A DNA stretch of 64,000 nt from Moniliella sp. 'wahieum' (GCA_003971905.1 RSEE01000027.1:248001-312000); one strand, 5' to 3'. Counted from the first letter of the stretch, positions 14,041 through 62,990 are shown. Numbers and translations are program-made. Notes: generated by a model not told the origin, from the letters alone.

Positions 14041-14136
14041 TCTCCCCTCTGGGAGTCGAACCCAGGACATTCAGAGCGGAAGTGACTCCACGTGACCAAT
14101 TACAATCTGACGCTCTTCCAACTGAGCTAAGGAGAG
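14041..14136 (-). tRNA. tRNA-Tyr(GTA) with intron
   Basis: CTCTCCT-TA-GCTC AGTTGGAA GAGC-G-TCAGA TT GTA A [intron] C TCTGA-ATGTC-CTGGG TTCGACT CCCAG-AGGGGAG-A, followed by a T8 Pol III terminator. Confidence 0.95.
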
Positions 14137-14817: not shown

Positions 14818-16695
14818 TCAAGCACTCGCATGCGTGGTCTCGAGGTGAACTTCCTCTGCTTCTCTTCCGGTGAGCCAGGGCGGCATCGTGCCAGTCGCCC
14901 CTCGTCTTTCCCTTTCCCGCTTCACCGACGATCGCCTGAGCAGCGACGGCGGCGCGCGTGTTGCCGATCAATCTCGGCATGAACATCGTCGCGAGAGGAC
15001 ATGCCCTTGGGTAGCCAGGAGCGCGATGTCCACGCGCGGCAGTTGGGGTCGCAATACATAGCGTTGACCTGCTCCAGGTTCAAGTCCTTTGTCTCATACA
15101 CAAAGAAGTAGGCAATCACCGCATTGGCCAGGTTGCAACCGGCAAAGATGTACCCGTATGCGAACCCAATGTCGGTGGTGATGGGAGTAGTGAACAAGGC
15201 CAAGAGGAAGTTCCAGATCCAGTTGGAAAGAGTAGCGAGCGAGGCTTGGCGGGCCCGTGTACGCGAGTCAAATACTTCGCCGGTAAAGAGCCAAATGCCG
15301 GGAGCCCAGGTACTTGCGTATCCCAAGATAAAGAAGCAGCCCGAGCAAATCATCAGCTTGCCGATACCCGAACTGAGATGCGGGTCGCCAAGTTTCTTAA
15401 TGCCGGTCTGCGGATTCGCCTTGTTTCCTGCCACACCCGCAGTGGCAAAGACGATGAGCCAAGCGCTGCACCACACTCCGCCCCAGATGAGCGGCAAGCG
15501 TCGCCCCACCGCTTCCAGCATCCACAACCCAAACAATGTGCAAACAAAATTGACCGCGCCAAAGATAATTTGGGTGACAAACGGGTCGGTTACGCCAACG
15601 GGAACCATGATCTGGGTTCCATAGTAAAAGAAGTAGTTGGCGCCTGTCAGCTGCTGCCCCATCTGCAAAACCATGCCCAGTAAAGTACGGTAAAGCGTCT
15701 TGTTCTCCACCCGGAACGTCTCGGCCCAGGTAACCTTGTTGTCGCGCTCTTCTTGGGCCATAGTGAGGATCTCGTAAACTCTGCCTCGACATACGGGTCC
15801 TTGTCGGCTGCCGTTTTGCCGCGTACGATGGCGACCGACTCACGCGCCTCATCGTATCTCCCATGAAGTGCAAGCCAACGGGTGACTCGGGACAAAACTG
15901 AATAGTGACCGCAAGGAAAGCACCAAAAAACATGCCCAGCCAACGGGGACGCGCCACTGGGTTGCATGAGAAGTATGCCGAGGGACAGTGCCCGGGGTGG
16001 TGCCATAAATGTCTTTCCAGTTGCAGCTGCCAGCACAGCGTGAGGCAATCGCAAAGCAATACGCAATCAGAATCCCGGCCGTGATAGCCCATTGGTAGGT
16101 AGCCACCAGCGTGCCGCGCAGCTGGCGCGGAAGACACTCGGCCTGGTACACTGGCACCGCACAGGACAGAGCGCCAATGGCCAAACCAGTGATCAGACGC
16201 CCCACGGCAAATTGAGCCCAGGCCCAAAACGTGCAGAGTTGGATGATGATACCAATAAAGAAGACTATCACCTCGTACTGCATCGCACGACGACGGCCAA
16301 AGTAGTCAGCCAAGTAGGCACCAATCAGGGCACCAAACATCGTTCCGATCGACATGAAGGAAACAATTAGACCGTCGAGCCAGGGGTTAGGGCCTTGCAC
16401 TGGATGGCACCCTCACAGACATCAGAGGCGAGGTTGCTGGGGTCCTTCTGGTGTTTAGTGACAGTGCCAAACCGGTAGAGAAAGTCTTTTGTGTTGGAGA
16501 TGCCCGAGATCTGAATGAATGAAGGGGGGGGTCAGCTCTACAGCTTGTACGCCAGACAGGAATAAGAAGAAAAGGGGGCACATATACCTGACCAGTGTCA
16601 TAGCCAAACAGAAAGCCTCCCATACTGCTGATGAGGCCGACACCGATGGCAGTGTAGCCAACAGTGGTGTTGCGCACAGTAAATGTGCGTGGCAT
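14818..16695 (-). CDS. MFS sugar porter / hexose transporter
   Basis: GGFLFGYDTGQ|ISG (intron), ADYFGRR, GRLITGLAIG, VPVYQAE..P..LRG, PESP, QQLTGANYFFYYG, GRR, VYETK..LEQV..MY. 3' end approximate. Confidence 0.93.
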
Positions 16696-26417: not shown

Positions 26418-26510
26418 CTCTCCTTAGCTCAGTTGGAAGAGCGTCAGATTGTAACTGGTTGCCTGCGGATATCCGCTCTGAATGTCCTGGGTTCGACTCC
26501 CAGGGGGAGA
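26418..26510 (+). tRNA. tRNA-Tyr(GTA) with intron
   Basis: Same exons as the copy at 14041-14136 except one base missing in the 3' acceptor strand (probably a sequencing error); intron sequence differs. Confidence 0.93.
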
Positions 26511-28790: not shown

Positions 28791-29154
28791 TGCGTCCAGG
28801 GCAGGGACTGTCTTTTGAAATTGGGTGTTAGCATCCGGGAGATCAAGCCTTGGGCGCCGCTTGGAACTCTGCAAGCACATGCTTGATTAGCCGGAAAGCA
28901 TCGTAGATCTCGTCACGATGCTTAGCGCCGGTAAGAACGATCTTGCCCGAGACGAAAACGAGAAGAACAACCTGCGTCCAGGGCAGGGACTGTCTTTTGA
29001 AATTGGGTGTTAGCATCCGGGAGATCAAGCCTTGGGCGCCGCTTGGAACTCTGCAAGCACAGGCTTGATTAGCCGGAAAGCATCGTAGATCTCGTCACGA
29101 TGCTTAGCGCCGGTAAGAACGATCTTGCCCGAGACGAAAACGAGAAGAACAACC
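28791..29154 (-). repeat. 182-bp tandem duplication of the TBP C-terminal coding segment plus 3' UTR
   Basis: 28791-28972 and 28973-29154 are near-identical; the visible difference changes IKPV to IKHV. Confidence 0.93.
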
Positions 29155-32100
29155 TTGGGCTTCACCATACGGTAGATAAGACCAGGGAAGAGCTCAGGCT
29201 CGTACGAAGTAAAAGGGCCGTGCGAATAGGCCAGTCCCTCCAAGCGAATGGGGAAGCCAACATCACACGAGCCCACAATGTTCTGAATCTTGAATTCGGT
29301 AAACTTGGCTTCAAACCCCAGCTTCTGAACAATGCGCGCATACTTGCGATGGCCAAACGGCTGTCGTCCTCAGACTTGGCACTGTTACACCATCTTGCCC
29401 GAAGCAAAAAGCAAAGCAGTGGTCCGAGGCTCTCGAATACGCATAATAACCGCAGCAAACCGCTTGGGGTTTGTTGGCCTAGGGAGCCGGACGGGCAGAA
29501 GGATGAGGAGAAGGTGATGGATTGGAGCCAGAGTTGGGTCTGGGTACAGAGGCATCTATATAGGAGGCTGGACTAGGCACAGGGACAGTGAGTCACACAG
29601 GAGAGAGTGCAGGGCACAGGGACAGTGACACGCAGGGACGTCAGCGTGGAAGCCGATGGAACCGAGGCGAACCTGGTCTACCGACTGGGAGCCAGAGGAT
29701 CACAGTCAACACCCCCGCTGGCCAGGGAACCCGGAGACATCGGTTGTGGGATGAGCTCCTGCCAGTGGATGTAGAGAGGGGAGGACTTGAGTGGCAACCG
29801 GGACGAATGGCCTGGAGTTGTGCATGGCCACACGACTGGCCTACACCCCCTGTCCAGGATGACACCTGAACGAGCCGAGCGCTTGTGGTTGGTGTATTGT
29901 GCGACCGCCAGATGCTTGTAGAAGTCTTAGAAGTAAAAGTAGTAGGGGTTGCGCCCCGAAGCGATTTGGTGGGCAAAAGTAAAAAGCACCAGTTATAGGT
30001 GTAGTGAAGAAATTGGAAACTTGGAGTAAATGCGGTCCAAGGTCGTTTGGCATCAAAATTGGATGCGTTTGGTAGTTGTTTGGTTCCGCATGCCTGGTGC
30101 CAGTGGGGTCCATTGGGCATGGAATGAACGGGCGCTATGCGTCAACCGTCTTGATCTGTTTGGGTTCTCTTTGTTGTTGAAAAAGAGGAGTGGAAGAAGT
30201 TGGGGTGACACCCCCCCCATCCTTTCCCAGGTGCCCCGGATGAATTGGCAATCCGGGGCGTGTAGCCGTGGGTGGGGCACTTGATGAGCAGCCACCCCCG
30301 CTTTCTGCGATTCGCCTGCGCCGTTTTGGTCGTTGGAGGAATTTCGTCTCGTTGACGATACCCGACACGTTTTGTTCCGTCGTGTGTTTGTCCCTAAAAA
30401 TCATGCCCCATCTGTGGGGGACGAGTGTGCCGATTGTGGCGGTAGTATGCCGATTGTGGCGGTAGTATGCCGATTGTGGCGGTAAGGTGCCGATTGTGGC
30501 GTGGTGTTGTTGGGCGGGAGGACGGGTGTGTCTTGTGGGCTTGGCGGCTTAGCTTGGGCTTGTAGGCTTGGGGGTGGGCTTGCTTGAAGAGCGCTCCCCT
30601 TCCGGGGGATCAGATTGTAGCTCTGTTGGCCTAGGGAGCCGGACGGGCAGAAGGATGAGGAGAAGGTGATGGATTGGAGCCAGAGTTGGGTCTGGGTACA
30701 GAGGCATCTATATAGGAGGCTGGACTAGGCACAGGGACAGTGAGTCACACAGGAGAAGTGCAGGGCACAGGGACAGTGACACGCAGGGACGTCAGCGTGG
30801 AAGCCGATGGAACCGAGGCGAACCTGGTCTATACCACTGGGAGCCAGAGGATCACAGTCACACCCCCGCTGGCCAGGGAACCCGGAGCATCGGTTGTGGG
30901 ATGAGCTCCTGCCAGTGGATGTAGAGAGGGGGGACTTGAGTGGCAACCGGGACGAATGGCCTGGAGTTGTGCATGGCCACACGACTGGCCTACACCCCGC
31001 TGTCCAGGATGACACCTGAACGAGCCGAGCGCTGTGGTTGTGTATTGTGCGACCGCCAGATGCTTGTAGAAGTCTTAGAAGTAAAAGTAGGGGTTGCGCC
31101 CCGAAGCGATTTGGTGGGCAAAAGTAAAAAGCACCAGTTATAGGTGTAGTGAAAGAAATTGGAAACTTGGAGTAATGCGGTCCAAGGTCGTTTGGCATCA
31201 AAATTGGATGCGTTTGGTAGTTGTTTGGTTCCGCATGCCTGGTGCCAGTGGGTCCATTGGGCATGGGAAATGAACGGCGCTATGCGTCAACCGTCTTGAT
31301 CTGTTTGGGTTCTCTTTGTTGTTGAAAAAGAGAGTGGAAGAAGTTGGGTGACCACCCCCCCCATCTTTCCCCAGGTGCCCCGATGAATTGGCAATCCGGG
31401 GCGTGTAGCCGTGGGTGGGCACTTGATGAGCAGCCACCCCCTTTCTGCGATTCGCCTGCCTGCCCGTTTTGTCGTTGGAGGAATTTCGTCTCGTTGACGA
31501 TACCCGACACGTTTTGTTCCGTCGTGTGTTTCCCTAAAAATCATTGCCCATCTGTGGGGGCGAGTGTGCCGATTGTGGCGGTAGTATGCCGATTGTGGCG
31601 GTAGTATGCCGATTGTGGCGGTAAGGCGCCGATGTGGCGGTGGTGTTGTTGGGCGGGAGGACGGTGTGTCTTGTGGGCTTGGCGGCTAGCTTGGGCTTGT
31701 AGGCTTGGGGTGGGCTTGCTTGAGAGCGCTCCCTTCCGGGGGGATCAGATTGTAGCTCTGTTGGCCTAGGGAGCCGGACGGGCAGAAGGATGAGGAGAAT
31801 GTGATGGATTGGAGCCAGAGTTGGGTCTGGGTACAGAGGCATCTATATGAGGAGGCTGGACTAGGCACAGGGACAGTGAGTCACCAGGAGAAGTGCAGGG
31901 CACAGGGACAGTGACACGCAGGGACGTCAGCGTGGAAGCCGATGGAACCGAGGCGAACCTGGTCTACCGACTGGAGCCAGAGGATCACAGTCAACAGGGT
32001 TGTACTCGGCGTTGCGGGCACGGAGGGCAATCGTCTTGAGGTCCAAGCGCACTTCGAGGTTCACCGTCGCAACAATGTTTCTGCGCAGCAAGAACCAGTT

Positions 32101-32278
32101 GAGCTAGGGTGCCCAAGAGAGAATAGGACGGACTTACTGTAGCGTAGGCATAACCTCTGCTGGGCTACGGCCGGCGTCGCGCGGCGTAGCAGGAATGGCC
32201 GGGGCAGGGGACGAGCTGCTTTGCTGGGGCAGCGACGGGGGCCGACGGAGCGGCCCCAGGCAGGGCAAGGCTAGCCAT
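29025..32278 (-). CDS. SPT15: TATA-binding protein; coding exon interrupted by a 2.5-kb LTR element (possibly a pseudogene or disrupted allele)
   Basis: ATG 32278; [13 protein letters not shown] (intron 32081-32137); [17 protein letters not shown] [insertion] [26 protein letters not shown]...[24 protein letters not shown]...[34 protein letters not shown]. Confidence 0.92.
29472..31996 (-). mobile_element. Non-autonomous copia-like LTR retroelement (TRIM) in tandem form LTR-internal-LTR-internal-LTR
   Basis: Three ~240-bp LTRs (29472-29711, 30624-30862, 31759-31996) with TGTTG...CAACA outer ends. TSD GGGTT at 29467-29471 and 31997-32001. On the minus strand a PBS follows the LTR and a G-run PPT precedes it. 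Internal units of ~900 bp lack an RT ORF. Confidence 0.93.
30428..30500. repeat. 20-bp minisatellite inside the TRIM (second copy at about 31567-31640)
   Basis: About four copies of GCCGATTGTGGCGGTAGTAT. Confidence 0.85.
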
Positions 32279-32480
32279 GTTGGGCTGCGGGGGAGACCGA
32301 GGGCAGTGGGAAGACCGCTGGCGGCGAATAAGCGATGTGCGGGGAGGCTGGCGTGCACAACAGGACAGGTGTGGCGGGGGTCGCGTGGGGAGCGCAGACG
32401 AACCTGGGCGCTGAAATTTCAAAACCCACAGGAGGGAGGGCGAGCGAAAAGCGGGGGCGACCGCATCTGCCGCCGGTGCC

Positions 32481-46806: not shown

Positions 46807-48236
46807 TTAAACCACTTGGTCCATGCGTGAGGTAAGTGAAAGGGGAAATGCTAGAGGTGGTGCTTTGCCGCGGGGGAGCCACTCGTGGTCCATAGCCACG
46901 GAAGAAGGAGTGAGAACAAAGCTGCAGCCGCCATGAGAGGTGGAGGCAGAGGAGGAAGCCCGGGACCGTGGAGCTCTTAGTCCAACGGAGCTGGCCGAGC
47001 TGTCGACCGAACCGCGACCCTGCGAGGGGGGTAGCCGCGATAAGTTTGGGGGCCAGTACATTGATGGGCTGGGTTGCGCCTGTGCAACCGGCGAATAGTC
47101 CAGTTGCTCCAGTGCCGGCATCAGGCTGGGGCCATGGGCCTGCACAAAAGACTGGCTCGGTGGCTGGCTCTGGATGCAGGTCGAGAGAGAGGAACCGGTT
47201 GAAGGGTGCATGACATCCAAGTGAGAGGATGGGGCGGGTGGCAGGCGAACGAACTGGGGATGGCCGAATGCGACCCCGGCGGGCGAAGAGGCGAAGAGGA
47301 GGAGCGGGAGGAGCGGAGTGACAAGCGGTGCTACCCAACTCGCCTTGGTTGGCGACGGCTCAGGTGTCAACGCTTTGGACCCTGATTCCGGGGCGAGGCG
47401 GTACGAAGTAGGCGGGGTGAGGTCGGAGTTGGGTGCAGTGGGGCGGGGGGGGATGTAAAGGGCCTGGTCGAAGTAGCCCTGCTCCAACAGCTTGGCAAAA
47501 CATAGCAGTTGTTCCGCTGGTACATTGACTCGATACCCCAGAAAACTAAACAGCTCTTGCTCCATAGTGTTGATGTCTTTCAAACTGAAAACACCTTGTC
47601 CGACAATGGCCCACGACTTGTTCGAGTAGGTATCGTCACACAATGCCTTGCTCGACAACATTAACGCCGAGATGAAAAGCCTGTGTCCGCTGGAACCCCG
47701 GGAGGAAGGAAAACGTTGTTTGAGCCGCTTGAGGAGATAAAGAGCTTGGTACACGACCAGCGTTGGCAGACGGGTACGGTGCAGAGCATACGCGATAAAC
47801 TCCACCAATCGAGGCGTTTCCTTACATGGGGTGATACTTGATCGCGACCGGACTGTTGACTCTTGAAATGGGCCAACGGGTGGCAGGAGAAAAGGGCGGT
47901 GATAACCACCTCACACATCTCGGACAGAGCACGGAAGCCATACAAGTTGCTGATGTCCCTTCTTGGAGCGTCAAGTGTGACAGGGGGAGCGCCTGGGCCA
48001 AGGTGTGGGCCGAAACAAATGGGCACCGTACGCTCCTCAGGCTCCGAATCGGTTTCGCTCTTGGGTTGCGAAGAATGGGGCGAAATGAGCGGGGGTTGGA
48101 GGTGGGGTGGATGGTGAGGTGGGGCGAGGACTGGTGGGAAAGGCAGGGAGGCGAGACAGGATGCAGCCCTTGGCCGTGAGGCTTGGGCGGGGGGGATGGC
48201 TGGGCCGTTGGTTTGGACATGGGGATGAGGGGGCAT
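46807..48236 (-). CDS. Pho85-type cyclin (Pcl/Clg1-like)
   Basis: Cyclin box LVEFIAYALHRTRLP...ALYLLKRLK.RFP...GSSGHRLFISALMLSSK.LCDDTYSNKSW.IVGQG.FSLKDINTMEQEL. ATG 48236; one frameshift near 47815. Confidence 0.9.
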
Positions 48237-50300: not shown

Positions 50301-51112
50301 TTCGTATCCACACGCGCTATACTCTCAGCTCTCAGGTATGAAAACGGATGGCGGGTGTCAGAGGGTCCTGTTCGATGATCTACTGATCCTGGGTTCCACA
50401 CGCCGGATGAACAGGTGTGTTTAGACGCAGTGTTTCTTTGTCCAAGCCTTACATGTTACAGCTCAAGGCTCAAGGGCACAAGCTCTACTGTCAATGATAT
50501 GGCTGCGCCTGGCAGGAACCCTCTGAAAAATTCTATCAAAATACACCGATTTCTTTATTAGGGCTTAATGTTGTTACATGTTGGTAGGCAGAGGTTTTAT
50601 TACGGCCCGTTGAGACCAACTTCGCTCCGCTTTTTAGCTTCATCGCCACCACACAATGCCCACCGCCGCCCTGAAACACGTATGTGGCGATGCAGCGCTA
50701 AGCTGAGGCCCTGAGCCTGGCTCAACGTAGGTTCATGTATGCATGATGCTAGTCCACTACGTGCCCCATTTCGTACGAGTCTCTTGCCCAGGCAGCCACT
50801 GAATATCAGCCACGGGGCCTGGGACGGCGCGTCCTGGCTCACCGTGACGCGTGACGTATAATGGAGATGCAACCGGTGATTGGTAAATACGGTGTCACCG
50901 AATGACTAAGCTCGCTCCAATTTCCAATTCCGCATCCTGTGTCTCTCGCTCTTCCCTTCCCTTTTGCTTCTGTTCTCTGCCTGATGCCTTCTGTTTCCTC
51001 CCACGAACGATCTTGCCTTTCCCCCCGCCTCTGACAGGACCTTGGTCTCCCTCGTTTAGCCCCGACTGTTACATTATCGTTCGTCAACCCCAATCAGACG
51101 AGCCCGACCAAG

Positions 51113-52476
51113 ATGTCCGCGACCCCCGACCAGCAGAATCTCAGCAACCCTACCAGTAACCCCCCCGTGCGCCGCAGTGGCCGTTACGCATTGGATGCCT
51201 CGGATGATGGCGGCGATGGCGGCGGTGCTGGCGGTGGCGAGGAGGGCAGAATGGTACACCCCGCCGCTCCGATGGCCCAAGACCCATCTTCCATGGCTGG
51301 ACCCCCCGCTTCTGCAATCGCGCTGGACGAGTTGAATGATGCTCGCGCGGCTCGTCGGCTGCAGGCGGAGAAGCTCCGCGAGGAACGGGCCTACGAGGCC
51401 GAGAAGATTCGCGACGACAATGCCCACGAGGCCGAGAAGATTCGAGTCGATCGCGCCCACACTCAGTTCCGGCGGGAGGCCATGCTGGAGGAGAAACGGG
51501 CGGAGGCTGCAGCGGCTGTTGAGATGCTGCAGCTCTCACAGACGGCAGAGCAAGCGCGCGCTGCTGCTAGCGGTGGTCCCGCCAACGTGCAAGGCCCCGC
51601 CCTTTCCGCCTCCGAGAGCGCCCCGTCCCAGCCGGCACCCGCGTCTCGCGACCTCAAGATGTTCGAGCCTGTCCATTTCCGTCCGTCCTCCAGTGCTCAC
51701 CCCAGCAAGAGTGACCGCATCTCGGCTGAAGAGGTCGTTACTTCCTTTGAGATCTACGCCCGCGTCGCCCTCGGTCGCCACGTCGACGATGCGGAGAAGA
51801 TTGACCGGTTCATGGGATTGATGCAAGGCGAGGCGCTTCGGTGGCTCCGGCAGTACGGGTCGGAGCCCGAACTGCCGTTGGCTCAGCGCACCTCCCCTGA
51901 CCTCCAGTCGTGGCCTGCCTTTCGGACTGCGTTTTTGACCGAATGGGGTGAACGTAACCCGCAGCAGTCAGCGTATGTGGAGTATCGGGCGCTCACTCAG
52001 ACCGGGTCGGCTGCCGACTATGCCGCTCAATTTGTGCGTCTGCTGCGATGCTGGAGCCCCAATGCCCCTCATGAGCAGTACATTGGGACTTTCTGTATGG
52101 GCTGAAACCCAAGGTGCGAGACGGTCTTGCTGCTCGTGGTGAGTCTACACACGTCAATCGGCTGTCGTTTGAGCAGCTGCGCACTGCGGCCATCGATATC
52201 GACGAGTCCCAGACGTTGGGTATGCGCGGCGTTAGTAGGGCTTCTCAGGCTCCGAGCGGGAGCCAGTTTTTTCGGCCCTCGCCGGCCGAACCCGAGCCCA
52301 TGGACCTTAGCGCAGCCGAGGCGCAGGCCACAGAGAGAGCAGCACGATATCGGGAGCGCAGGGCGGAAGGATCCTGCTACTGTTGCGGCTCCCGTGACCA
52401 CCGCATCGCCCGCTGCCCGCTTGCCAGCTCGCCCCCGCCTCAACAGTCCGACTCCTCCACGGCTGGTGCTGTCTGA
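51113..52476 (+). CDS. gag: Gag (capsid + CCHC zinc knuckle)
   Basis: G.A..W, W..F...F..., LTQTGSAADYAAQF, FLYGLKPKVRD (after a 1-bp shift near 52080), PEPMDL, CYCCGSRDHRIARC. Confidence 0.9.
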
Positions 52477-55400
52477 GGCGGCCGTCGGGCCCAGTCGGCC
52501 TTCGCCTGGTTCTTTCACGGTACTTGTTCACTTGCGCCCTGGTTCTTCGTCCTCGTCCCCGTCCCCAGCTCCGATCCCGGTTCTTGCCCTGATTGACTCT
52601 GGTGCCAACAGCGTCTTTATGGATCGTGTCTTCGCTCACCGACACGGCCTGCTTGCCCATCCGCTGGAGTCGCCCTTGTCAGTCCGCGTAGTTGACGGAC
52701 GCCCCATCTCTTCGGGTCTGGTGACCCGGGCGGTGGAGGCATCCGTCGCGGTCGGCTCGCATGTGTCGACCGAGGAATTTTTCCTCACCTCCCTCCACCA
52801 TCCCTTGATTCTTGGCCTCCCCTTTCTCGAGGCCCACAACCCTTCCACCGACCCTCGCACACTTTGCATTTCGACAAACCGCAGTGCCGCGAGCATTGCC
52901 AACCCCAACCCAGCACCAGCACCAGCACCAGCACCAGCACCCGCCCCCGCACCACCAGCACCAGCACCAGCACCAGCACCAGCACCAGCATCTCCCCAAC
53001 CAGTTCCCCCCTCCCCCACATCCGCCGCAGTCCCCCTCTCAGCTTCCGTACCAGTCTGTGCCTCCACCTTCAAACCAGTCCCCCCTCCCCAAGGTACGCG
53101 TCTTCGCTCCTCACCTCCGGTACCACCCCTTCCCAGTCCTCCCTTCCCCTAGCGTGCCGATTGACCTCCTTTCCTTGGAACAGTTTGAAGGAGAGGTGGC
53201 CGCCGATCCCACACCGAGGTATGCGTTGCCCGTCCCAGTGACCCAGCTTTGGTCATTTCGTCTGTTTCCGTTGCAGAGGGTCCAGAGCCAGTGTTCCCTG
53301 ACGAGTTTGACACCCCGGAGTATGTCGACCACGTCCGGAAAACGGTGCCTACCCGCTACCATGCCTATCTTGATGCCTTCTCCAAGTCTGGCGCCAAGAC
53401 GCTTCCCACCCATCGTGCGGCCGACCATTCGATCGACCTCGTGCCCGGCGCTACTCCCACCTTCACTCGTCTCTATCCCCTCTCTACGGGCGAGATGGAT
53501 GCCCTGGGCCGTTGGATTGACGAAAATTTGGCCTCTGGGTTCATTCGCCCGTCTAAATCGCCGTTTGGGGCGGGTGTTCTCTTTGTTAAGAAGAAGGATG
53601 GCTCGCTCCGACTGTGTGTAGACTATCGTGCTCTCAACTCCATTACCATCAAGAATCGTATGGCCCTCCCCTTGATTAGTGACTCGCTCGATCGCTTGTC
53701 CGGGGCTCGCGTTTTTACCAAGCTTGACCTCCGTGGGGCGTACAACCTTTTGAGGGTCAAGGAGGGCGATGAGTACAAGACGGCTTTTCGTACCCGGTAT
53801 GGTCACTTTGAGTCGCTCGTCATGCCGTTCGGTCTCTGTAACGCGCCCGCCACTTTCCAAGCCATAATGAATGATCTCCTCCGGGACTCCTCGACGTCTC
53901 GGTGCTGGCATATTTGGACGATATTTTGGTATTCTCGTCGGACGAGAAGGCACACGAGGAGCATGTTGCCGAGGTGTTGCGGCGTCTGCAGCGCGCAAGG
54001 CTTTACCTTAATCCGGACAAGTGCCAGTTCCACACATCCCAGACTGAGTATTTGGGCTATGTCGTTTCGCCCACGGGGATCGGAATGGATCCTGCTAAGG
54101 TGGAAGCGATCAAAGCATGGCCGACGCCCAAGACCAGTCGCCAAGTTCAGGTGTTCCTTGGGTTTGCCAATTACTATCGCCACTTCATTCGCTCCTATGC
54201 CCGCATTTCGGCACCCCTTTCCGACCTCACCCGCAAGACACAGCGGTTTGATTGGACGCCTGCCTGCCAAAGCGCCTTCGACGACCTCAAGAGGGCCTTC
54301 GCTTCTCCCCATGTCATTTGCCATTTTGACCCCAGTCGGCCACTCCGCATTGAGACTGACGCATCGGATGCCGCCTTGGGTGCCGTGCTGGCCCAGCAGG
54401 ACAAACATGGTCGTTGGCGGCCTGTCGCCTTCCATTCCCGCAAGCTTGTCGCAGCCGAACTCAACTATACCACGTCTGAGAAGGAGGTGCTTGCCATTGT
54501 GGCGGCCGTCGAAGTGTGGCGCCACTATGTTGAGAGCGTCGATACGGTCCAGGTGCTTACGGACCACGAGGCGATCGCTACCTTCCGCCGGCCGCGCCTC
54601 CTGAACCGCCGGCAGGGCCGGTGGCGTCAGACCTTGTCGCCCTACCGGTTACTCATGGTGTATCGCTCCGGGACGAAGAATGCTGCCGCTGATGGCTTGT
54701 CCCGTCGCCCCGATCTTTCCATCGGCTCTCGCCCTGCCGAGGCTGCCCCCCAGACCCTGCTGGAGCCTGTCTCTGAGCGTTCGGCTGCTGTGCTCGAGCT
54801 CATGTCCACTCAGCCCGACGCGCCGTTGGTGGCGCGCTTGTCGGCCGACGAGATCCAGCAGCGCATCCGCGACTTGGTGCCCCGCGCCCCCGTTGGGCCG
54901 TTGCGATCTCCCCGCGACCCCCCCCTCATGCTCTTACCGTTCGCGATGGCTCCTGTGGCATGGGGAGCAGATCTATGTCCCCCCGATGCCCTCTCCGCGC
55001 GGCTGTCCTTTTCCAGGCCCACGACTCCGCGCTGGCAGGACACGAAGGGCGGGACAAGACTCGGTTGCGTGTGCGGTCGCAGTATTGGTGGCCCCGCCTG
55101 TCGGCCGACGTGTGGGCATATGTGCGCTCTTGCGACCGTTGTCAGCGGACCAAAGTGCCGCGGCGTCCTCCCGCTGGCTTGCTTCAACCCTTGGCCCCAC
55201 CTCAAGGCCCGTGGACTCATTTAACGATGGATCACATCACCCAGCTTCCACCCTCGAAGGGGTTCGATGCCATCTTGGTCGTGGTGGACAGGTTCACTAA
55301 GATGGCGCATTTCATTCCTGCCCACACAACGGACACGGCGCCGCGGCTTGCCCACCAGTTTGTTCACCACGTTTTCCGCTACCATGGGTTGCCGCGCGAC

Positions 55401-56344
55401 TTGGTCAGCGACCGTGGTCCTACCTTTACGAGCCACTTTTGGAGGGCCCTGTGCAGTGACTTGGGCATCCACTCGAGCCTCAGCACGGCGTATCACCCCC
55501 AATCGGACGGGCACGACGGAGAGAGTGAACCAGGTGCTCGAGCAGTACCTTCGTTGCTACCTGGATGAGCAGCAGTCAAACTGGATTGATCTTCTTCCCA
55601 CGGCCGAGTTTGCTTACAACTCTTCTCCCCACTCCAGCACAGGCGCGTCCCCCTTTTTCCTTACGTATGGCTACTCGCCCCGCGGTGAGTTGGCGGCTGC
55701 GTCGTCGGCCGTGCCGGACGCTGCATCGTACCTCGAGGGCCTCCGCTCGGCCCAGGCCGTAGCTCGGAAGACGCTGGCCGCTGCCCAGGAGCGGTATCGG
55801 CACTACGCTGATCAGCATCGCACCGAGGCCGACACCTTTGAAGTTGATCAACCGGTTTTGGTTCGGCGCGATGGCTACTTCTCCACCCAACGTCCCTCCG
55901 ACGGGTTGGATTATCGCTACCTTGGTCCCTTTCCCATTGTCCGTGCTGTCGGACGTGCTGCGTACCAGGTTCGCTTGCCTGATTGGCTTCACATTCACGA
56001 TGTGTTCCACCTCTCCCGGTTGCGCGCCTATAGCCCAGGCGACGAGGTCTCTAACCGCTTGGTCGAGCCCCCTCCCCCCCTTCCCGAGTATGCCGACGGG
56101 GGCGTTCATCACGAGGTCCAAGAGGTTCTTGACTCCCGCCGTAAGGGTCGCGGTGGACGTCTCGAGTACTTTGTCCATTTCCGAGGCTACCCGGTCCACG
56201 AGCGGGAGTGGGTGCCAGCCGCGGACATGTCCCACGACGCCGACCCGGTGGTTCGTTTCCATGCGATGTACCCGACAAGCCTGTTTCCCGCTCCCGTCGC
56301 ATTGCCCTTGCCCGCCTCCTCCGAAGCCGGGGAGGTGAGGTCTG
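52477..56344 (+). CDS. pol: Pol polyprotein (protease, RT, RNase H, integrase, chromodomain), with frameshifts
   Basis: [62 protein letters not shown] (H..AGH..CDRC); [37 protein letters not shown]. Confidence 0.93.
52910..52990 (+). repeat. (CCAGCA)n microsatellite encoding (Pro-Ala)n between protease and RT
   Basis: Two runs of CCAGCA, in frame with the protease ORF (PAPAPA...). Confidence 0.9.
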
Positions 56345-56699
56345 AAAGGGGGCAATGTCACCGAATGACTAAGCTCGCTCCAATTTCCAATTCCGCATCC
56401 TGTGTCTCTCTCTTCCCTTCCCTTTTGCTTCTGTTCTCTGCCTGATGCCTTCTGTTTCCTCCCACGAACGATCTTGCCTTTCCCCCCGCCTCTGACAGGA
56501 CCTTGGTCTCCCTCGTTTAGCCCCGACTGTTACAAACGGCAGCCGGGGTACCCTGTACCCGGAAACCAGAAACCTTTGGCGAATAAGAGAAGCGGAACCT
56601 ACCCCCAAAAACCCCGCCAGCCACCCCTCCCCGCTGTTCTTTGTTGGAAGTTGGACCTAGCTGTCCCGCTTAGCCTGACAGCGACGCGCGCCCTCCGTC

Positions 56700-60680: not shown

Positions 60681-62990
60681 ATGCCTACCGACGTAGGCAC
60701 CAACCAGGATGGCGAGCCGGTGCCATCCGCTCACATGGGTGGGTACTCCAGCCTCACGGGCGCAGGCGAATGCAACACCACAATGGCTATCCGTGATCTG
60801 ACCTTCTCCCCCCCTTCGCTTCGCCGCAGGCAACCTGACGCCCGAGCAGTCGCTCAAGCTCCGCCAGTTCTACACCAAGCTCCACCATCTATCTCGCCAA
60901 CACCTCGACGTCTCCGACGCTCTCAAGCGTCGCGGCGGCCCTGCTGCTGTGCCCAAAACAGAGCGAACCCCCGCTAAGGCCACCAAGCCTTCCCGCACCA
61001 CCACTCCCGCCGACGACGGCGCTAAAGACGATGCCAAGCTCCACGCCGAGCAGCGCCAGATGGATGTATTCCTCCGCACATATGGCGGCGACTACCTCCG
61101 CACTGCATTTTACGATTTTGTTCAGGTATGTCCCCCCTCCGCTTTGCGCATCCTTTGTCCTCAGACCTGCAACCGACGCGTGGCACTCTTTTTCTCCTTC
61201 ACAGGCCGACTATATCGATGCCTCGGCCCTGCGCTTTCTGCGCGCACGCAAGTGGGATGTAGATCGGGCCATCGCCATGCTGTGCTGCCATCGGCTTCCG
61301 CCTGGACAATGATCTGATGGGTTTGCTGGCCCAAGGCGAGAATGGGTTGAAGGATGTGCCCGGGTTTCTCAACCAGATGCGTCGTGGCATCTCCTATGTC
61401 CGCGGCAATACCGACTCGCCAGGCGAACACCCACTTTACTTTATTCATGTTGCGCGGCATTATGCCAACGCGCAATCGTCCGAAACGCTCGAGCGTTTCG
61501 TCCTGTTGGCCATGGAAGCCACCCGACTGCTATGCAGTCCTCCGATGGAAAAGGCTGTCGTTGTCGTTTTCTCTCTGGAAGGCTTTGGCATCAGAAACAG
61601 TGCGTTCCTTTCTCCTTTGCTTCGTCTTCGTGGCCTGCCCCACTGACTATCATGGTGCCTGTCTTGCAGTGGATTGGAACTGTGTTACGTTCCTTGTGCA
61701 ATGCCTTGAGGCATATATCCCGAATCGTTGCATTGTATCTATGTCCATGGTGCTCCTTGGATCTTCCGTGGCATCTGGCAAGTCTCTCTCCTATGCTCGA
61801 CCCCGTCGTGCGGGAGAAGATCAAGTTCACCAGCAAGGCACAGGATCTAGAGGCGCACATTCCTTCCTACAAGCTCCGAGTTGCTATGGGTGGCACCATG
61901 GACTGGGAGTGGGACTACACCGAACCTGATCCTCGCGAGAACGAGTTACTTGAGCGCACGGACATTGCTGATCGTATCCGAGCCGAGCGTGACGAGCTCT
62001 GGGCCCAATTTGACAGGTTACGTTCGATTGGTGCCAAGCCGCGTCGGACGAGGCGGTTCCCGAGCTGACGTTCCGCCGACTCGTGCTCCAAAAACAGATC
62101 CGCCTCAAGCAGCTCCAACTGAACCTTACGTTCGCGCCATCAACGTCTACCAGCGTCAAGGTATCCTGAATGAAGCCAACTCCCATACATGGAAGTACCC
62201 TCAAGCCAATGCACCCGCTCTTAGCCAGACCGTGGGCAGTCGCCATGACATCCCAGCGTTGTTCCAATGGCTCGTGGACAATAAGCAAGACGTCTTCCTT
62301 GACTCGTATGGAACACGTTTTGGGGCTTGCGGCCTTGCCCGCCCACCCGAATTGATCCCAAGCTGGGTGCACAAACATGGCGGACCCGTCCCCATCCCTG
62401 CCTTGGCTACTAATCCCTCCTGCAACCACCCCGCCCTCGCCCCCACCGCCACCACACCACCACATCGACTATCGCCCCTCCCCGCCAGGGCTCTGTATCG
62501 CTGGCTCACGCTTCGTCCACCTCTACCGCTGCCGCGCCATCACAACCTCCTTATAAGGAGACGTTCTTGCCAAAAGAGGACGCCGCCGTTGCAACGATTG
62601 CATCGGCAACTGCTGTGGCGGTCGATTCAACTGTGAACGGACTTTCTCATACTGCCTCTCGCTCTTCGTCGGACCTGTCAATTGTATCAGGGAACGAAGG
62701 GTATCGACGACGCCTGAGTATGGGTATGGGGAGGTGGACATGTAAAGAGACTGGCGGAAGCAATGCCTGGCAACGCAATGATTCCTTCTTGGGCACCGAT
62801 CGGTCAGTGTCCCGTTCCGAGGTTGATGAGAGCTTAGCCGATTCAATTTTGGCTCACAGTGCCGCTTACGGGAGGAGGAGGAGGGTATCGAGTCGAGTGG
62901 GGAGGAGTCGATCGGCACGGACGCCATGTCAGACGACTCAGATCCGCCTACGACGTCTGTGCGACCGGATACATCCCCACCACAAGCCAC
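60681..62990 (+). CDS. CRAL-TRIO/Sec14-like lipid transfer protein (Csr1/Sfh2-like) plus low-complexity linker; probably the N-terminal part of a fused gene
   Basis: HM|GNLTPEQ (intron ~60739-60830); D..ALRFLRARKWDVDRAIAML; FLNQMRRGISYVRG; FSLEGFGIRN|.DW; LEAY.PE..; HGAPWIF; LDPVVREKIKFT; MGG..DWEWDY.EP...EN. Confidence 0.88.

Follow-up and report, generated by a model that had tools for sequence, protein, structure and literature searches.

A 14-nucleotide sequence that directly adjoins the long terminal repeats (LTRs) of a small non-coding element in the fungus Moniliella sp. 'wahieum' is, with a probability of roughly 0.78, the minus-strand primer-binding site (PBS) of a copia-type LTR element whose primer would be one half of a spliced tyrosine transfer RNA (tRNA-Tyr). 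The element lies in a 64-kb stretch of DNA (GCA_003971905.1 RSEE01000027.1:248001-312000), referred to here as the window, and all positions are counted from the start of this window, which consists of eukaryotic DNA with a G+C content of about 52-68%. It is present as an array of LTR1, internal 1, LTR2, internal 2, and LTR3 that spans 29472-31996. The features of the array and of its borders are as follows.

29467-29471, no strand: left target-site duplication GGGTT, identical to 31997-32001
29472-29711, minus strand: LTR1, 240 bp, TGTTGG..TCAACA on the plus strand
29712-30623, minus strand: internal 1, 912 bp, non-coding, with the polypurine tract AGCGGGGG at 29712-29719 and the putative PBS at 30610-30623
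30610-30623, minus strand: putative lower-unit PBS, minus-strand sequence GAGCTACAATCTGA
30624-30862, minus strand: LTR2, 239 bp, common to both units
30863-31758, minus strand: internal 2, 896 bp, non-coding, containing tandem units of 20 bp at about 31568-31643
30863-30870, minus strand: polypurine tract, AGCGGGGG as read on the minus strand, directly abutting the TG of LTR2
31745-31758, minus strand: putative upper-unit PBS, with 13 of 14 bases complementary to tRNA-Tyr positions 27-40
31759-31996, minus strand: LTR3, 238 bp, the 5' LTR in the minus-strand reading
31997-32001, no strand: right target-site duplication GGGTT

The array and its match to tRNA-Tyr

The host tRNA-Tyr genes with which the 14-mer was compared are the only two Rfam tRNA matches in the window.

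14041-14136, minus strand: tRNA-Tyr(GTA) gene with a 23-nt intron, Rfam tRNA score 55.5 bits
26418-26510, plus strand: tRNA-Tyr(GTA) gene with a 21-nt intron, Rfam tRNA score 44.8 bits

Both genes encode a standard cloverleaf with the anticodon GTA and an intron after position 37. Since the D loop is of standard length, 8 nt, linear and standard tRNA numbering coincide. The introns cause ARAGORN to mislabel both genes.

On the plus strand, the 14-mer reads TCAGATTGTAGCTC, and it has only two exact matches in the window, at 30610-30623 and 31745-31758. Both copies directly adjoin TGTTGGCCTAGGG, the start of an LTR on the plus strand, and are flush with TGTTGG, which bears out the placement given in the initial annotation of this DNA; in the minus-strand reading, the order is ..GGCCAACA followed by GAGCTACAATCTGA. 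A search that allowed up to two mismatches, for which 0.32 matches are expected by chance, returned a third match, with two mismatches, inside the unspliced tRNA gene at 26444, and none of 100 shuffles reached three matches. Positions 27-40 of the spliced tRNA-Tyr (canonical splicing, 37/38) read TCAGATTGTAACTC and agree with the site at 13 of 14 bases in both genes of the window, as had been annotated. The unspliced gene agrees at 11 of 14 bases, and this difference supports the further claim that the PBS spans the intron junction; the best agreement with the reverse complement of the spliced tRNA is 8 of 14.

The whole window (both strands, analytic) is expected to contain about 0.02 matches of at least 13 of 14 bases, and this one sits right at the edge of the LTR, 0 nt from it. 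Complementarity ends exactly at tRNA position 27, with position 26 and the bases beyond it unpaired, while at the other end the LTR-terminal CA faces tRNA positions 41-42, and the pairing thus continues two bases into the LTR. As read from the sequence, the register that ends at position 40 is the only one that gives U33, a purine at position 37, and the stem pairs 31-39 and 30-40.

The boundaries of the element itself are firm. LTRs of about 238 bp and an internal region of about 900 bp make up one unit of about 1.37 kb. The same 20-mer opens all three LTRs (it occurs three times in the window, where chance would give 0.01), and all three copies have the short inverted termini TGTTG..CAACA. 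The 5-bp duplication GGGTT stands on both sides of the array, and the flanks, when joined on the minus strand, restore a continuous TBP reading that covers positions 5-35 and 34-61 of the Pfam TBP profile. The element is thus placed precisely inside a TBP coding sequence, and there is no doubt about its limits. Pairs of LTRs differ by 0-1 substitutions and 4-7 gap columns (LTR1 and LTR2 by 0 substitutions and 5 gap columns), and an alignment of internal 1 with internal 2 (922 columns) shows 5 substitutions and 36 gap columns. The array may have arisen either by unequal exchange between LTRs or from a concatemeric complementary DNA (cDNA). Neither a further copy nor a fragment of the unit lies elsewhere in the window.

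The two longest frames of the array contain no Pfam family at an E-value of 0.01, and every frame is short and broken; the longest stop-free frame of internal 1 (29641-30141, minus strand), which runs into LTR1, is likewise without a Pfam family. With TG..CA direct repeats, a target-site duplication, a PBS, and a polypurine tract, the element is an LTR retrotransposon. The lack of coding capacity, the 5-bp duplication, and the TGTTG..CAACA ends place it among the non-autonomous Ty1/copia elements that resemble miniature terminal-repeat retrotransposons (TRIMs) or large retrotransposon derivatives (LARDs). Ty1-like elements are said to have such ends typically (PMC4139406), and 5-bp duplications are reported for fungal TRIMs mobilised by copia elements (PMC10886601). 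The candidate PBS pairs with the anticodon arm up to about nucleotide 40 and lies directly after the LTR, which suggests the hemivirus type.

The element leader contains three to four 20-bp tandem units (GCCGATTGTGGCGGTAGTAT, plus strand) at about 30429-30505 and 31568-31643, approximately 100-190 nt downstream of the PBS. These units may be a packaging or dimerisation signal or the result of simple slippage.

The exons of the two tRNA-Tyr genes are identical, while their introns differ and share the start xTGGT and the end TCCG. The loop of the mature tRNA-Tyr would be TTGTAAC (A37, C38), and a loop with A37 and C38 is unusual in a tRNA that reads codons starting with U. In the gene at 26418-26510, one A is missing from the 3' acceptor strand, which is probably an assembly indel.

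Orientation and predicted priming

The orientation of the element follows from the arrangement of its two candidate priming sites. On the minus strand, no base separates the LTR end CAACA from the tRNA match, and AGCGGGGG directly meets the TG of the next LTR downstream; the polypurine tract, with its run of five G, therefore abuts the LTR opposite the one that bears the PBS. On the plus strand, the sequence before the LTR is not purine-rich, and the sole PBS candidate is a TGG-led stretch 7 nt from the LTR. Published internal sequences of fungal Helenus elements open with the PBS and, in most of the entries of the data file, close with a G-run against tgttg (PMC10886601). The layout on the minus strand matches these sequences, and the minus-strand orientation fits best.

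Hemivirus cDNA is reported to start at the 3'-OH of nucleotide 40 of a half-tRNA (PMC1181622), in agreement with the geometry given in the initial annotation for copia and Ty5. According to a second source, copia uses a half-tRNA primer and Ty5 an internally cleaved initiator tRNA (PMC5371799). For the element described here, the geometry lends good support to half-tRNA priming with tRNA-Tyr: where the site lies, how long it is, the register in which it pairs, and the orientation backed by the five-G tract all agree with what was first annotated, and the use of the tRNA as primer is predicted from them. In the proposed reaction, an autonomous copia element would be the helper that supplies the proteins, and its enzymes would copy the RNA of the non-coding element. 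A 5' fragment of the spliced tRNA-Tyr(GUA), released by cleavage, would pair through positions 27-40 with the site beside the 5' LTR. Minus-strand DNA would be initiated from the 3'-OH of tRNA nucleotide 40, and plus-strand DNA at the G-run AGCGGGGG beside the 3' LTR. In most eukaryotic tRNAs, G26 is dimethylated, and the dimethyl mark halts reverse transcriptase; in retroviruses, 1-methyladenosine at position 58 (m1A58) sets the 18-nt length of the PBS. The mark on G26, just beyond the site, may fix the 14-nt length of the PBS in the same manner as m1A58.

Several observations weigh against this interpretation. The window contains neither an autonomous copia partner nor a copia gene. Conservation of the PBS is seen only within one array, and the two copies are not independent witnesses of it because they are parts of the same tandem array. 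The comparison of primers covered one tRNA species, tRNA-Tyr. The single mismatch lies 4 nt from the 3' end of the primer, where the element has C and the tRNA has A37. Extended bipartite pairing of tRNA positions 1-26 with the leader was inconsistent, since pairing as good was reached in 195 of 300 shuffles for unit 2 and in 7 of 300 for unit 1.

Additional pairing of tRNA positions 41-73 with the leader was not consistently above that of shuffled sequences. A search of metagenomes for the pattern of an LTR end followed by the PBS, with C or T opposite position 37, returned nine loci, close to a rough chance expectation. None of the nine resembles an LTR junction, and three of them share one conserved coding context; a retroelement domain was found in 0 of 16 scanned frames, which were chosen from 33 candidates.

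The base opposite position 37 and other readings

The site departs from the tRNA at a single base, tRNA position 37, which ends exon 1; there the element has C instead of the T that would pair with A37. It is conceivable, although we would not call it probable, that the half-tRNA PBS is real and that the working primer is a tRNA-Tyr with G37, either an isodecoder encoded elsewhere or the product of a splice shifted one base in the 5' direction. With a G37 primer, the site would match the anticodon arm at 14 of 14 bases, and the duplex energy would be -22.0 kcal/mol compared with -15.3 kcal/mol for A37. The two introns, otherwise different, both end in G, and moving both cuts one base 5' yields TCAGATTGTAGCTCTGA, again a match of 14 of 14. 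The PBS of a retrovirus is recopied from the primer in each cycle; a young element such as this one, with 0-1 substitutions between its LTRs, would therefore be expected to match its primer. By our reading of part 1 of the published data file, fungal sites of the Tyr, iMet (initiator tRNA-Met), Asn, and Ile types show T opposite position 37 (PMC10886601), which suggests that a modified A37 is normally copied as A.

Set against a G37 primer are both tRNA-Tyr genes of the window, which have A37 under canonical splicing, and the covariance model, which puts the insertion after A37. A tolerated single mismatch or a late mutation fits the data equally well. We know of no non-canonical intron positions in fungal nuclear tRNAs and of no editing of position 37 in tRNA-Tyr. 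Minimum-energy folds of the anticodon arm of the precursor tRNA place the 3' junction inside a hairpin and do not distinguish the canonical from the shifted junction.

A more specific proposal is that the C opposite position 37 is a faithful copy of the primer and that the PBS thereby records a mature G37 tRNA-Tyr, for which excision of the intron at 36/37 would be the simplest route. We consider this unlikely. If it were true, a nuclear tRNA of a fungus would have its intron at a non-canonical position. The Ile-type fungal PBS fits an inosine-edited anticodon (PMC10886601), and such sites can therefore record the mature tRNA instead of the gene.

A much weaker alternative reads the element on the plus strand, with priming by the 3' end of a whole tRNA. 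The PBS would then be TGGCCAGGGAACCCGGAG, from 29719 onward and 7 nt after CAACA, in a stretch that starts TGGCCAGGG, and the 14-mer would stand beside the 3' LTR by chance. The TGG that leads this stretch so near the LTR is in its favour, and TGGCCAGGGAACCCGGAG, read backwards, resembles a tRNA 3' end in outline, since it shows CCA, then a discriminator base, and has a C where C61 would be. Chance often puts a TGG within about 10 nt, however, and no purine tract is flush with the 3' LTR in this orientation, where 14 bases that are not purine-rich intervene. The implied tRNA would have C1-G72 and G73, and the 3' end of the tRNA-Tyr in the window differs from this; a C1-G72 pair with G73 is otherwise the mark of tRNA-Tyr. 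Moreover, a match of 13 of 14 bases at the exact LTR edge, expected 0.02 times per window, would be left unexplained. These objections make the plus-strand reading very improbable.

Hardly credible is the idea of a plain 1.14-kb tandem repeat that is not a retroelement, with the 14-mer explained by chance or as a leftover piece of a tRNA gene. The unit is indeed repeated head to tail about 2.2 times, but the same 238-bp segment with TGTTG..CAACA inverted ends opens and closes the array, a 5-bp duplication borders the array on both sides, and the array breaks into a conserved coding sequence at a precise point. The 14-mer, in addition, lacks the intron that the tRNA-Tyr genes carry.

Two further candidates were rejected. 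Self-priming of the Tf1 type is excluded, as the 25 nt that follow the LTR share at most 5 nt of complementarity with it in either orientation, an extent that 470 of 500 and 474 of 500 shuffles equalled; the element's own LTR, which the initial annotation had named as a possible better match for the site, thus does not provide one. In the positive control, the Ty3/gypsy element of the window, 9 nt are complementary and 0 of 500 shuffles were as good. A small-RNA module in the LTR, of the kind found in Helenus, Cassandra, or Ajax, was also rejected because the LTR contains no tRNA-like or 5S-like module. An Rfam search of 29300-32150 at E-values up to 1 gave no tRNA-like match and only two chance-level matches to RsmY. 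The element is not a Helenus, since its LTR is without a tRNA-like RNA polymerase III (Pol III) module.

Genomic surroundings and relation to known elements

The TBP gene that hosts the insertion and the other annotated features of the window are listed below.

28791-29471 and 32002-32290, minus strand: TBP gene, host of the insertion, with one GTAAGT..CAG intron
50893-56534, plus strand: Ty3/gypsy chromovirus with gag, protease, reverse transcriptase, RNase H, SH3_Tf2-1 domain, and chromodomain, in frames broken by indels
14922-15839, minus strand: sugar transporter gene (Pfam, E 1.3e-57)
46807-47910, minus strand: cyclin gene, N-terminal domain (Pfam)
61313-62068, plus strand: weak match to CRAL/TRIO (Pfam)

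The LTR array interrupts the TBP gene in its first repeat. The gene also has its 3' end duplicated in tandem over 182 bp (28791-29154, 99% identical), and stops or frame breaks occur after ..GKMV. The gene is either a dead second copy or has been damaged by assembly errors. Copies of repeats across the window differ mainly by one-base indels. Because these differences consist almost only of gaps, the assembly of the window is taken to be error-prone, and frame breaks in the genes found here should not be read as signs of pseudogenes unless they are checked. The chromovirus has LTRs of 181 bp (50893-51073, 56356-56534), and 4 of 5 bases agree between its flanks, TACGG and AACGG. It has no tRNA PBS; the 9 nt after its LTR, at 51076-51084, are complementary to 51003-51011 within the LTR, and none of 500 shuffles equalled this. 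It is probably a self-primer of the Tf1 type, judged by this complementarity.

The closest published relatives in priming are found among fungi. Kojima 2024 (PMC10886601) describes fungal Copia elements and Helenus TRIMs that are primed from the anticodon loop of the spliced tRNA-Tyr-GTA. The tRNA-Tyr genes concerned have introns, so that the PBS implies the spliced tRNA, and the same source states that Copia-50_PHord uses tRNA-Tyr and that the use of tRNA-Tyr-GTA arose several times. The role of tRNA-Tyr, which the initial annotation had taken to be undescribed, is thus already on record, and the half-primer cannot be claimed as novel. Ten Helenus internal consensus sequences in the data file of that paper open with gatttaca.., which we read as the probable complement of positions 40-27 of the tRNA-Tyr arm, with TAC at bases 5-7 and in the register proposed here. 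Within the portion of the supplement that was covered, no relevant PBS identical to GAGCTACAATCTGA occurs, only the gatttaca.. form of rust fungi (PMC10886601).

The element resembles the fungal Helenus TRIMs as a non-autonomous LTR element with a 5-bp duplication, tgttg..aca ends, and a G-run polypurine tract flush with the LTR (PMC10886601). It also shares with them a PBS of 14 nt that adjoins the LTR and has TAC at bases 5-7, and an intron-bearing tRNA gene to which the PBS fits only in the spliced form. Unlike the Helenus elements described there, it has no tRNA-like Pol III module (boxes A and B) in the LTR, its internal region is longer, at about 900 bp, and its site corresponds to the anticodon stem of this fungus and has C, not T, opposite position 37. 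Arrays of LTR elements in tandem are known as well: three LTRs and two internal regions within one duplication recall tandem LTR arrays of TRIMs and other LTR elements, of which the LTR-11_DR arrays are mentioned in the same paper (PMC10886601).

Drosophila copia and yeast Ty5, both of the genus Hemivirus, likewise have a PBS that pairs with the anticodon arm, and the 3' end of their primer is nucleotide 40 (PMC1181622, PMC5371799). Those elements are autonomous and use the initiator tRNA-Met. The primer fragment of copia was reportedly found by experiment, whereas the primer of the element described here is predicted from sequence. In Candida, gamma is the LTR of Tca2, an autonomous element of an ascomycete yeast. 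In LTR families of Candida albicans, gamma among them, the PBS region shows homology to internal parts of tRNA-Arg(UCU), a non-initiator tRNA, and of tRNA-iMet (PMC4139406), which is consistent with the internal priming by tRNA-Arg cited in the initial annotation; the tRNA is a different one from that proposed here. In plants, half-tRNA primers (tRNA-Met, and a tRNA-Ile matched in its edited form with inosine at position 34, I34) are described as confined to Ty1/copia lineages (PMC6317226). The plant Ty1/copia lineage Bianca resembles the present element in its use of a half-tRNA primer other than iMet, and its PBS matches the mature edited tRNA-Ile (I34) and not the gene, which provides a precedent for a PBS that records a mature tRNA (PMC6317226). 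It differs in the tRNA used, tRNA-Ile, and in having its edited base at position 34.

The Moniliella element reveals no new mechanism and is a tidy example of known priming, in which the host tRNA-Tyr genes and a half-primer site of the tRNA-Tyr type lie in one window and are hence directly comparable. What is new is a candidate tRNA-Tyr half-primer in a plain non-coding LTR element without the tRNA module of Helenus, together with a mismatch that falls exactly at the splice-junction base, position 37. This mismatch leads to a cheap and testable prediction on the mature tRNA. The element supports the view, published for rust fungi, that copia-type elements of basidiomycetes have repeatedly switched their half-tRNA primer away from the initiator tRNA-Met.

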